From positions 96,001-160,000 of the IMG/VR virus record IMGVR_UViG_3300032220_000699: DNA of 64,000 bases. One strand, 5' to 3'. A program made the position numbers and the translations under genes. Under the pieces are notes generated by a model, which was not told where the DNA came from, did no database searches, and saw only the letters and a program-made list of their open reading frames with translations. This DNA is from a virus. This document shows positions 1,124 through 27,502 of the stretch, in pieces (positions within the stretch are counted from its first letter, which is position 1; every line of letters starts with the position of its first letter).

Positions 1124-1456
1124 CTAAGCACAATTCTTTTGTTCAGCTCGCCGCGCATTCAAGCGATCAGCCGTAGTGGTTGACTTGCGAGAATTAAGAC
1201 GGTTAGCCAAAGCGATCGGGTGAATACGATAAACACCCTTAGCGATGCGGCGAGTATATTTACGCCATGTCGGAGAATGTTCGCTGGTATCCATCTCAGC
1301 GTTACTGAGAAGAACACCGGTATAAGACTTCTTGATCTTCTCAAAAAAGTCCATAACTTCCTGACGAGTTACGATCAAACCTTTACCGATTTGACCATCA
1401 AGCATAGCATCCAGAAGCGAGTCATGAATGCTGCTAGTGACGTATGTTGCCATCAC
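1124..1456 (-). CDS. hypothetical protein
   Basis: 110-aa ORF with AAGGAG RBS. Confidence 0.7.
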   Translation of the reverse strand: MMATYVTSSIHDSLLDAMLDGQIGKGLIVTRQEVMDFFEKIKKSYTGVLLSNAEMDTSEHSPTWRKYTRRIAKGVYRIHPIALANRLNSRKSTTTADRLNARRAEQKNCA

Positions 1457-1511
1457 AGTCTCCTTAAAAGAGAGGGTTAAGATTTACTGCGGTTTATACG
1501 TGAAGAGTTAA

Positions 1512-1597
1512 TGGTGCCGGGAACGGGAATCGAACCCGTACACTCAATGAGCGAGAGATTTTAAGTCTCTTGTGTCTACCAATTTCACCACCCCGGC
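1512..1597 (-). tRNA. tRNA-Leu(TAA)
   Basis: Cloverleaf with AGAGA-CTTAAAA-TCTCT anticodon arm, long variable arm, encoded CCA. Confidence 0.95.
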
Positions 1598-1624
1598 AAC
1601 TTTAAAACTCTTTAGTACAAATAA

Positions 1625-1633
1625 TATATATGT
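1625..1633 (-). promoter_or_regulatory. recurring ACATATATA upstream motif (first of about 15 copies)
   Basis: Plus-strand TATATATG at 1625, 2652, 5655, 7751, 10208, 15448, 17019, 19464, 25210, 27443, 37427, 37747, 56201, each intergenic and upstream of a minus-strand gene or RNA. Confidence 0.7.
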
Positions 1634-1646
1634 TATTAAAAAAGTA

Positions 1647-2069
1647 TCAGCTGCAGATCTCTTCGTCAGCATCTGAAGCTAGTGATTTATAACCTTTGTA
1701 AGTAGGATGAATTTTATCCTTACTTAAATCAGACTTTCTAGGACTAATAGTAGTGTCTCTATATATACCAGCAACTTGCCTTACAAATTCATATTGTTCT
1801 GGTTTAATATCTTTATTGGGTAATATCCAAGTAACACATTTACTTCTAATTCCCATCCTTAACTTCAGAAGAGAGTTAAAAGTTGGTGTGACCTTTGTAT
1901 CATTTGTTCCCAAACTAATAATAGTATGTTTATTATATATGTTAACTGGTCCATATCTATTAACATAATTTTCCGAATTGATTCCAGATTGAACGTATGC
2001 TTGACATTCTTTTCTGACTTGTGAAATTCCTACACCAATGGAATCTCCAAGTATCAGGCATTCTAACAC
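1647..2069 (-). CDS. SGNH/GDSL-family hydrolase
   Basis: Block I GDSIG, block III SLGTND, block V DKIHPTYKGY. Confidence 0.8.
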   Translation of the reverse strand: MLECLILGDSIGVGISQVRKECQAYVQSGINSENYVNRYGPVNIYNKHTIISLGTNDTKVTPTFNSLLKLRMGIRSKCVTWILPNKDIKPEQYEFVRQVAGIYRDTTISPRKSDLSKDKIHPTYKGYKSLASDADEEICS

Positions 2070-2090
2070 TGTTAACTCCTTGAGAAATGA

Positions 2091-2166
2091 TGGCCTCCCG
2101 TAGACGGTTCGAACGTCTGACCTGAATCTTAGAAGGATTCTGCTCTTCCAACTGAGCTAACGGGAG
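2091..2166 (-). tRNA. tRNA-Arg(TCT)
   Basis: CTCCCGT/ACGGGAG acceptor stem, GAATC-CTTCTAA-GATTC anticodon arm, TTCGAAC T-loop, CCA. Confidence 0.93.
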
Positions 2167-2621
2167 TTATTTTGAAACGGACTATTCTTACTAATTGTAT
2201 TATGAAATCTAGCAGAACAACTTCTAGAACAAAAAAGATGTTGAACACCCTTTCTAATTCTATTATTTATTTCACCTTGAGTTATATAAAATAAATTTCT
2301 ACAATTATCACATGGAACTATTGTCCATTGTACAACCATAGCGGAATACCACCATTGTTGTTTTAATAAATTCTGCTCTTGCGATAGCAATTGTAGATTA
2401 TTAATATCATCATTAGTTTTATCATCGTCCTTATGATCTACTTCAAAGTCATCAGGAACTTCATATCCAAGTTTAATACCCATAAGGTATCTAGCATAAG
2501 AAATAGTTGTTCTATCTGAATTTGAATTAAACAGATCAACTATTCTTCTATTTTCATTTGATATTCTTAAGTAACCTTTTTTCCATTTACTTCTAAAAGG
2601 TTCTTGTAATTCTATTAACAT
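2157..2621 (-). CDS. HNH homing endonuclease with C-terminal Cys cluster
   Basis: VDHKDDDKTNDDINNLQLLS motif; CDNC...FCSRSC; stop codon lies inside tRNA-Arg. Confidence 0.88.
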   Translation of the reverse strand: MLIELQEPFRSKWKKGYLRISNENRRIVDLFNSNSDRTTISYARYLMGIKLGYEVPDDFEVDHKDDDKTNDDINNLQLLSQEQNLLKQQWWYSAMVVQWTIVPCDNCRNLFYITQGEINNRIRKGVQHLFCSRSCSARFHNTISKNSPFQNNSR

Positions 2622-2676
2622 GCTAATGCTCCAAAAGCTATTGACATGTATTATATATGTTATTGAATAAATCCCA

Positions 2677-2698
2677 TATCCAACTGAGCTATAGGCAC
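2677..2698 (-). pseudogene. 5' tRNA fragment (Arg-like acceptor strand plus D-loop)
   Basis: GTGCCTA TA GCTCAGTTGGATA, then non-tRNA sequence and the ACATATATA motif. Confidence 0.7.
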
Positions 2699-2737
2699 AC
2701 TTACTCTTTACAAACTATGTTGTTATCTAGTATTTTT

Positions 2738-2944
2738 TTAAAACCTTGGTGGCGGTGAAGGATACATAAACATAACAGAAAGATCCATCATAAATTCTCC
2801 AGGCGCGGGATTATCTACAATCTCAAATCCTGGATCTTTTTTCATTCCCTCAAAAAGTTTTTGAAGTTCAGGGTTACCACAGTTTAAAGAAGCTGATTCC
2901 AGATCACCCATATGTCCACGTGACACTCTGATTTTACCAGTCAT
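2738..2944 (-). CDS. hypothetical protein
   Basis: 68-aa ORF with GGAG RBS. Confidence 0.6.
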   Translation of the reverse strand: MTGKIRVSRGHMGDLESASLNCGNPELQKLFEGMKKDPGFEIVDNPAPGEFMMDLSVMFMYPSPPPRF

Positions 2945-2957
2945 TTATTTTCTCCAG

Positions 2958-3467
2958 TTACTTATTGTGAGAAGTTTTATAGATCATATATTCTAGTTCA
3001 CCTCGGCCTATACGTAAATTATTTTTTGCTAATATTGGTACGTCTTTTCCTTCACCACCAATTTCTTCAAATGTGAAAGATTTAAATTCTTTTATTATTT
3101 CTATCTTTCCTTTTGTCAATGCCACTAAATCAATATAACCGATTCTAACCATTTCAATAGGTCTGATAAACCAATGCTCGTGATTTTTTCTAAAATCAGA
3201 CACAGCAGGTGGTAAGTAAGGTCTATCAGAAGTCATATAAATAGCCGGAGGATTCCAACCATTTTCTTCATTTCTGCATTCGATAATAATATCCATACTG
3301 TAAAGTTGTTTATTGCTAGAAATAGATCTTAAGCAATAAAGTAATTCTGGTGCAACACAAACTCTAGGTATATTACCTTCCTTATTTATGATAGCTGATT
3401 CAGGAAGTTTTGGTCTGAATTTAAAAACAGGACCGTGATCCTTTTTTGAAACATGGTAAAACAACAT
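2958..3467 (-). CDS. hypothetical protein
   Basis: 169-aa ORF with AGGAG RBS. Confidence 0.7.
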   Translation of the reverse strand: MLFYHVSKKDHGPVFKFRPKLPESAIINKEGNIPRVCVAPELLYCLRSISSNKQLYSMDIIIECRNEENGWNPPAIYMTSDRPYLPPAVSDFRKNHEHWFIRPIEMVRIGYIDLVALTKGKIEIIKEFKSFTFEEIGGEGKDVPILAKNNLRIGRGELEYMIYKTSHNK

Positions 3468-3517
3468 TTATTTCTCCTAGTAAAAAAAGAAGAGAGGGAT
3501 TTCTCCCTCTCTTCTTC

Positions 3518-16681: not shown

Positions 16682-16689
16682 TAAAACTT

Positions 16690-17015
16690 TACAACTAGTA
16701 GGCGAAAGGATACTTGGCAGTACACTTTCGGCTACTACTCTGAATTCTATCCAGAGCACTAGATTTAACACCGATAGTCAGATGGGCCTTATCCGACAAT
16801 GGCGCCGGTTGCTTCTCACTGCGGCTAAACGGTTTCCAAAGAAAGGATACCAACGCGGCTAGAGAAACAGCTTCAAGTCCAATTGAGTTTACCCAACACT
16901 CAAAAGTTCCTGCGTACAGTTTATGACTGGGTTGTCAAACTTGTATAGGACGCGCGCTTTACACTGTTAGTTAGCGGACGAACATTTGGCAAACAGCATG
17001 GAGCTATAAGCCAAA
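16690..17015 (-). ncRNA. candidate structured ncRNA between tRNA-Asn and tRNA-CAT
   Basis: About 325 nt without an ORF, own ACATATATA motif at 17019, several hairpins. Confidence 0.45.
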
Positions 17016-17055
17016 TAGTATATATGTAACCAGTTATTTTCCAGTTACATAAATG

Positions 17056-27470: not shown

Positions 27471-27502
27471 GGAGGTGCTTTCAACCGCTCAGCCAAACCT
27501 CC
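27471..27502 (-). pseudogene. 5' fragment of a tRNA-Ser-like gene
   Basis: GGAGGTT TG GCTGAGCGGTTGAAAGC ACC: acceptor strand plus complete D-arm, no anticodon or T arm. Confidence 0.75.

Follow-up and report, generated by a model that had tools for sequence, protein, structure and literature searches.

A phage HNH endonuclease gene whose stop codon lies inside the adjoining tRNA-Arg gene

Does a nuclease gene that borrows its stop codon from a tRNA gain a control device, or is it simply pressed against its neighbor? We examined this question at a locus in a 64,000-nucleotide stretch of phage DNA (positions 96,001 to 160,000 of the 189-kb IMG/VR virus record IMGVR_UViG_3300032220_000699; referred to here as the window), in which an HNH homing endonuclease gene runs into a tRNA-Arg gene (Table 1). 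A preliminary description of this DNA had proposed that maturation of the tRNA removes the stop codon and routes the protein to tagging and proteolysis, possibly by the phage's own tmRNA, as a built-in limit on a toxic nuclease. Our analyses lead us to favor a plainer explanation: the overlap is probably, in the main, a tolerated result of squeezing a selfish HNH gene against a tRNA gene, in the leader of the pre-tRNA.

Table 1. Features of the HNH-tRNA-Arg locus and associated elements (window coordinates)
Feature	Position	Strand	Details
Permuted two-piece tmRNA gene, tag AANDAQFAPQLKLAA	161..597	minus	ARAGORN "Permuted"; Rfam tmRNA_permuted, 102 bits
tRNA-Arg(UCU), CCA encoded	2091..2166	minus	ARAGORN, Rfam
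10-nt overlap	2157..2166	minus	(AA)C TCC CGT TAG codons = tRNA-Arg positions 1-10
HNH homing endonuclease gene, short form	2157..2621	minus	154 codons; HNH_3 and zf-FCS zinc finger, no C-terminal HTH
Shine-Dalgarno GGAG	2629..2632	minus	7 nt 5' of HNH ATG; from sequence
Phage promoter motif	2643..2675	minus	G-rich -15 element; core ACATATATAATA, 2660-2649; TG, 2646-2645
tRNA 5' stump, 22 nt	2677..2698	minus	Acceptor strand, U8-A9, D stem and loop
Sister HNH gene, 161 aa	26928..27413	minus	40% identical (tblastn)

Read along the minus strand, the locus consists of a 68-codon open reading frame (ORF; 2944-2738), the tRNA stump, the promoter motif, the HNH ORF, tRNA-Arg, a 140-codon ORF (2069-1647), and tRNA-Leu, with the tmRNA gene ∼1 kb beyond. 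The HNH gene is free-standing, with its own promoter motif, GGAG, and ATG, and occupies the space between the 68-codon ORF and tRNA-Arg. Its 3' end reads ...AAC TCC CGT TAG, and the TAG (2159-2157) is U8-A9-G10 of tRNA-Arg(UCU). ARAGORN and Rfam agree on the tRNA, and positions 1 to 10 of the tRNA are, as the preliminary description stated, the final 10 nt of the ORF. The tRNA was absent from a fast first pass of Rfam and was found in a later Rfam search (RF00005, 48.8 bits; gathering score, 29, with the match starting at 2166). Because its acceptor stem (CTCCCGT/ACGGGAG) forms seven Watson-Crick pairs, the 5' end at 2166 is firm, and the minimum-energy fold of the tRNA in its precursor context is a cloverleaf.

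The encoded protein matches Pfam HNH_3 (PF13392; 39.1 bits, cutoff of 24.8) as well as zf-FCS and was assigned to PHROG 14913. The invariant residues E60, V61, D62, H63, D71, N75, and N84 and four cysteines are all retained, an alignment of 21 homologues shows no variation at H63, N75, or N84, and the ORF is free of frameshifts. The protein thus resembles other HNH_3 homing or nicking endonucleases of phages in its above-cutoff domain and conserved DH...N...N pattern, whereas the zf-FCS finger and the association with tRNAs set it apart as a distinct subfamily (PHROG 14913). When PDB sequences were searched with a profile, no solved relative was returned at an E value of ≤0.01.

The 140-aa ORF between tRNA-Arg and tRNA-Leu (1647-2069, minus strand) begins with a GDS motif and has no match in Pfam or PHROG. 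Its homologues occur in unrelated contexts, and one of them (45% identical) sits within a 21-tRNA array on another virus contig (L147:3489-3905), for which reason we regard the ORF as a second kind of passenger gene in tRNA arrays.

We looked to the promoter motif for evidence on how the HNH gene and tRNA-Arg are transcribed. The motif takes the form GAA-N12-ACATATATAWTA-N2-TG, and a search of the whole genome for its core, allowing one mismatch, gave 30 copies on the gene (minus) strand but one on the other. Most copies lie 20 to 40 nt 5' of a ribosome-binding site and start codon. One copy (core at 1633) lies 18 nt 5' of tRNA-Leu, so a tRNA in this phage can have its own promoter. The sole copy upstream of tRNA-Arg is the one 5' of the HNH gene; a motif scan found none between 2643 and 2166, and no terminator-like site was found in 1400-3000. 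The HNH gene and tRNA-Arg are therefore probably cotranscribed, as had been supposed, and judging by these motifs the HNH message would most simply be the 5' leader of the pre-tRNA.

A hairpin is predicted at 2649-2618 (minus strand), in which the HNH start codon and part of the GGAG pair with ACAUGU just after the promoter core. In this it is similar to the ribosome-binding sites that are sequestered in homing endonuclease genes of T4, although the fold of the whole segment that holds it is no better than those of shuffled sequences (z-score not significant). Elsewhere in the window (16682-17055, minus strand), a copy of the promoter motif (core at 17027) lies just past tRNA-Asn and is followed by ∼330 nt of relatively G+C-rich sequence and then tRNA-Met. 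This stretch contains neither a convincing ORF nor an HNH remnant and could represent either an extended leader of a pre-tRNA or a small, stable RNA comparable to those of the T4 and T5 tRNA regions.

Based on the structure of the tRNA, RNase P is predicted to cleave between 2167 and 2166. An RNA cut there would end ...CAA AAU AA and contain no in-frame stop codon, so the logic by which tRNA maturation yields a nonstop mRNA holds. Taken together, these features suggest a unit in which a free-standing HNH gene would sit within the 5' leader of the transcript for tRNA-Arg(UCU), in the order phage promoter, ribosome-binding site, HNH ORF, and tRNA. The ORF, lacking a stop of its own, would extend ten bases into the tRNA and end on the near-universal U8-A9-G10, the conserved TAG serving as a ready stop. 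Ribosomes could translate up to the TAG only while RNase P had not cut the transcript; after cleavage, the HNH message would have neither a stop codon nor a protective 3' structure, so that ribosomes would stall and the RNA would decay. Low nuclease output is a likely side effect of the overlap.

The 22-nt tRNA 5' fragment ahead of the HNH gene is real and beyond doubt derived from a tRNA, but its origin may not be the one first assigned to it. The preliminary description held that the resident tRNA had replaced, rather than repaired, the old one. This is doubtful, as 20 of the 22 nt of the stump, including a run of 17, are identical to the 5' end of the phage's own tRNA-Met (16681-16605; blastn-short E value of ∼1e-4), and a related locus (L010) has a tRNA-Met directly before an HNH-tRNA-Arg(tct) pair. 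Agreement with the tRNA-Arg(tct) of another virus contig (L079) is 19 of 22, and the D loop of the stump agrees as well with tRNA-Arg(tct) genes found in other viruses. By sequence, then, no tRNA-Arg is a better fit to the stump than tRNA-Met is, and the stump need not derive from a former resident, although 22 nt is too short to settle its identity. With L010 as the model, the stump may be what is left of a tRNA-Met that once stood 5' of the HNH-tRNA-Arg pair.

The stump and its counterpart in the sister cassette (2665-2706 and 27471-27502, minus strand) can each form a hairpin in which the 5' acceptor strand pairs with bases just past the D arm (CCUAUA/UAUGGG and GGAGGU/ACCUCC, respectively), and each hairpin finishes at the upstream edge of the promoter. 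These hairpins may be due to chance, or the stumps may be internally deleted tRNAs retained as RNA structures.

The sister HNH gene belongs to a cassette of the same build, consisting of promoter (core at 27451-27440), HNH gene, tRNA-Ser, tRNA-Tyr, and then a hairpin, and it is likewise preceded by a tRNA-like stump (32 nt, resembling tRNA-Ser; 27502-27471). Here, the stop codon (TAA, 26930-26928) lies 1 nt 5' of tRNA-Ser (26926-26839). A six-frame hmmsearch of the whole genome with a family profile found only these two intact copies and no decayed HNH gene between tRNA-Asn and tRNA-Met. A third HNH_3 gene (genome positions 92795-92932, 3.1 to 3.2 kb before the window start; L002) lies in an open frame of 188 aa; it is unrelated to both cassettes by tblastn, and ARAGORN found no tRNA nearby.

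A 958-aa virion protein of this phage matches 290 phage records, and those among the matches listed are jumbo phages, the closest of them being AgentSmith (53%). Through this protein, the phage appears to be a phiKZ-related jumbo phage. A query with the phiKZ nuclear-shell protein (chimallin) gave no match in this genome, and we therefore dropped an argument in which a phage nucleus, by uncoupling translation from transcription, would give RNase P a head start. AgentSmith, the nearest cultured phage, has a tRNA-Arg(tct) but no HNH homologue, and a megablast search of 1500-3500 against phages returned only scraps of tRNA and HNH sequence. Searches with the HNH protein, the upstream 169-aa ORF, a 219-aa ORF, and an exact 20-nt word of tRNA-Arg recovered no sister genome or HNH-free allele of the locus, so insertion into the tRNA leader is a model rather than an observation.

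The tmRNA that had been suggested as the tagging partner is also real. The gene is permuted, lies ∼1.56 kb downstream of the HNH gene, and encodes a tag ending in LAA, but nothing links it to the HNH gene, and the proposed connection is unsupported. Only one of ∼130 related loci (L014, on another virus contig) has a tmRNA nearby. There, an HNH homologue (L014:2083-2935) begins ∼12 to 30 nt past a phage tmRNA gene, from which it appears that the family also settles beside tRNA-like genes.

To place the overlap in a wider context, we compared the HNH protein with 276 database homologues. About half of the family is of a long form (∼188 aa; range, 179 to 198 aa) with a C-terminal HTH tail ending ...NTVMKYW, while the numerous and diverse short forms (∼150 aa; range, 140 to 160 aa) include the HNH protein of the window. 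ORF ends and tRNAs were surveyed in 52 virus, 80 metagenome, and four cultured-phage loci. Among 68 nonredundant homologues with complete ORFs, a same-strand tRNA abuts 49, lies −63 to +43 nt from the stop codon in 31, and is overlapped in 15, by exactly 10 nt in 7 cases. Across virus contigs that are unrelated to one another, the homologues are found next to many different tRNAs, an indirect sign of mobility, and the exact 10-nt overlaps use TAG or TAA at positions 8 to 10 of Arg, Leu, Met, Ile, and Asn tRNAs; this exact length arises mostly because TAG or TAA is conserved at those positions. The stop-removing layout is not conserved: of the 31 homologues that are closely followed by a tRNA, only 15 run into it.

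The closest relatives show both arrangements. P0002 (79% identical and equal in length) also ends ...SSR, as would be expected of an overlap with the same tRNA 5' end; for this protein and for P0003 (75% identical), the overlap is read from the protein tails only. The closest long-form homologues that adjoin tRNA-Arg(tct), in turn, stop 4 to 24 nt upstream of it. Since close homologues end 6 to 8 residues earlier than the HNH protein of the window, loss of its last three residues would not disable the enzyme were the ribosome to be rescued with no tag added. At the L010 locus, a distant homologue (L010:127-699) is wedged between intact tRNA-Met and tRNA-Arg(tct) genes; its ATG shares the final A of the tRNA-Met CCA, and its TAA is nt 8 to 10 of tRNA-Arg(tct). 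Bounded by tRNAs on both sides, this gene has no room for a separate ribosome-binding site. In cultured phages, the homologue stops 0 nt (Acinetobacter) or 2 nt (Xanthomonas) before a tRNA, and HNH genes of another family (PF01844) overlap a tRNA by 10 and 14 nt at two further loci (L115 and L024, respectively).

Evidence that the overlap has been selected is weak. Of ten overlapping genes whose tRNA carries TAR at positions 8 to 10, seven use it as their stop against an expectation of one third (binomial P of ∼0.02, calculated by hand), but this frame test is a weak one, as a preference for short overlaps alone would give the same result. Nuclease ORFs overlap the tRNA in 20 of 37 cases, compared with none of 6 other ORFs, in a sample that is small and drawn from nonindependent loci (one-sided Fisher P of ∼0.02, by hand); the six ORFs without a nuclease domain, from the same loci, stop 4 to 11 nt 5' of their tRNAs. 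Four "non-HNH" overlapping ORFs in a first control list were rejected as artifacts that read through tRNA genes, and the two real overlapping ORFs left from that list are both HNH genes of another family. In AgentSmith, a gene (L150:295-1008; MW749006.1, 46094-46807) ends, directly before tRNA-Arg(tct), with a TAG at nt 8 to 10 of tRNA-Lys(ttt), which is the same 10-nt overlap. Although annotated as "toprim domain-containing," its product matches Pfam DUF4326, together with a below-cutoff match to NADAR, and not Toprim.

Both the layout and the hypothesis built on it have precedents. In phage T5, hegC and hegD are also HNH genes on the tRNA strand; we confirmed in the sequence that hegC ends with a TAG inside the next tRNA (tRNA-Ser2, nt 12 to 14) and hegD with a TAA inside an annotated pseudo-tRNA-Gln2 (nt 21 to 23). 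These F-Tfl nucleases are of a different lineage (annotated HNH plus NUMOD4, with no tblastn match to the HNH protein of the window), overlap their tRNAs by 14 and 23 nt rather than 10 nt, and are embedded in a densely packed array of tRNAs, not in a unit that has one tRNA and a promoter to itself. In T4 and T6, segB is, like the gene described here, a free-standing homing endonuclease gene directly 5' of tRNA-Arg(UCU); segB is cotranscribed with the tRNAs. However, SegB is a GIY-YIG enzyme, the segB TAA of T4 precedes the 5' end of the mature tRNA by 5 nt instead of falling inside the tRNA, and no tRNA stump precedes the gene. SegB cuts inside tRNA genes (PMC13096335). For segB, it was proposed in 2008 that maturation of tRNA-Arg cleaves the mRNA past its final sense codon but short of the stop, which would impair the message and hold the nuclease down, and the same stop-removal idea was cited for the T5 F-Tfl nucleases (PMC2330249). 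Given these T5 genes and that earlier proposal, neither the layout nor the hypothesis is new; the mechanism is plausible and already published in outline. The present analysis contributes a third lineage of nucleases, a cleaner example, with the stop codon truly within the tRNA, and a measure of how large the tRNA-associated family is.

Related outcomes occur in other systems. The arfA mRNA of Escherichia coli is cut by an endonuclease upstream of its stop codon, and the product of the resulting nonstop mRNA is controlled by trans-translation; there, however, RNase III cuts at a hairpin and the protein backs up tmRNA failure, whereas here the predicted cut is by RNase P at a tRNA. In mitochondria, coding regions border on tRNAs or run into them, and excision of the tRNAs sets mRNA 3' ends and sometimes removes part of the stop codon. 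Mitochondria complete U or UA stops by polyadenylation, whereas A's added to ...AAU AA here would give AAA, which is not a stop codon.

Could the overlap nevertheless be a selected control, with RNase P removing the stop codon and the stalled product tagged by tmRNA (perhaps the phage's own) and degraded, so as to limit a toxic nuclease? In favor of this, the overlap itself exists, the two genes involved are probably cotranscribed, a relative of the same length keeps the ...SSR ending, overlap is commoner in nuclease ORFs than in other tRNA-adjoining ORFs, and the phage tmRNA tag ends in LAA. Tight control of expression is, moreover, the rule for homing endonucleases, and this very route was proposed for SegB (PMC2330249). 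Against this, the sister cassette keeps its stop codon outside the tRNA, as do long-form relatives beside tRNA-Arg(tct); the 10-nt class is about what a conserved TAG and a preference for short overlaps would produce; a nonnuclease gene in AgentSmith has the same overlap; and a tmRNA lies near only one of the related loci. Rescue of the ArfA/ArfB type would, in addition, release an untagged and essentially complete enzyme, three residues short. We consider such a device unlikely here, and nothing shows the overlap to be the built-in limit that was first proposed. Broader still is the idea that selection has made stop removal by RNase P a widespread means of controlling the dosage of homing endonucleases encoded in phage tRNA operons, with output inverse to tRNA maturation and the excess sent to trans-translation, here perhaps via the two-piece tmRNA of the phage; we give this generalization little credence.

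At the other extreme, the overlap might not affect expression at all, if translation occurred before or without the RNase P cut, or if the tRNA came from another transcript, so that most translated messages kept the TAG. The ribosome-binding site and AUG follow closely behind the promoter, where ribosomes could load early, and weak sigma-70-like hexamers occur inside the HNH gene (2425-2397 and 2290-2262). However, such matches are at background level for AT-rich DNA (13, versus 7.1 ± 2.7 in shuffled sequences), with none above 9/12 inside the gene, and the phage promoter motif is missing between 2643 and the tRNA. Processing of pre-tRNA by RNase P is also generally fast, and we regard an overlap without consequences as improbable. 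That the gene is a decaying remnant, in which a deletion took the C-terminal HTH and the original stop codon and fused a dead ORF to the tRNA at a position without meaning, would fit the fact that the HNH protein stops where the HTH of the long forms would begin. This reading is very unlikely: the invariant catalytic and zinc-binding residues are intact, there is no frameshift, short forms of this size are numerous and diverse, P0002 retains the same length and ending, and the gene has a promoter motif and ribosome-binding site. The account that best fits the evidence as a whole is that of a selfish gene pressed against a tRNA, with an overlap that is mainly tolerated.

The overlap described here adds one more case of a layout that the T5 annotation already shows, and the gene belongs to a large, unnamed HNH/zinc-finger family that is found almost wholly beside tRNA genes and in which about half of the members located upstream of a tRNA read into it. 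If tRNA maturation does set the amount of nuclease made, this would explain how selfish genes of this kind can last in the tRNA regions of phages and do their carriers no harm, and an idea first raised for T4 segB in 2008 would finally be tested.
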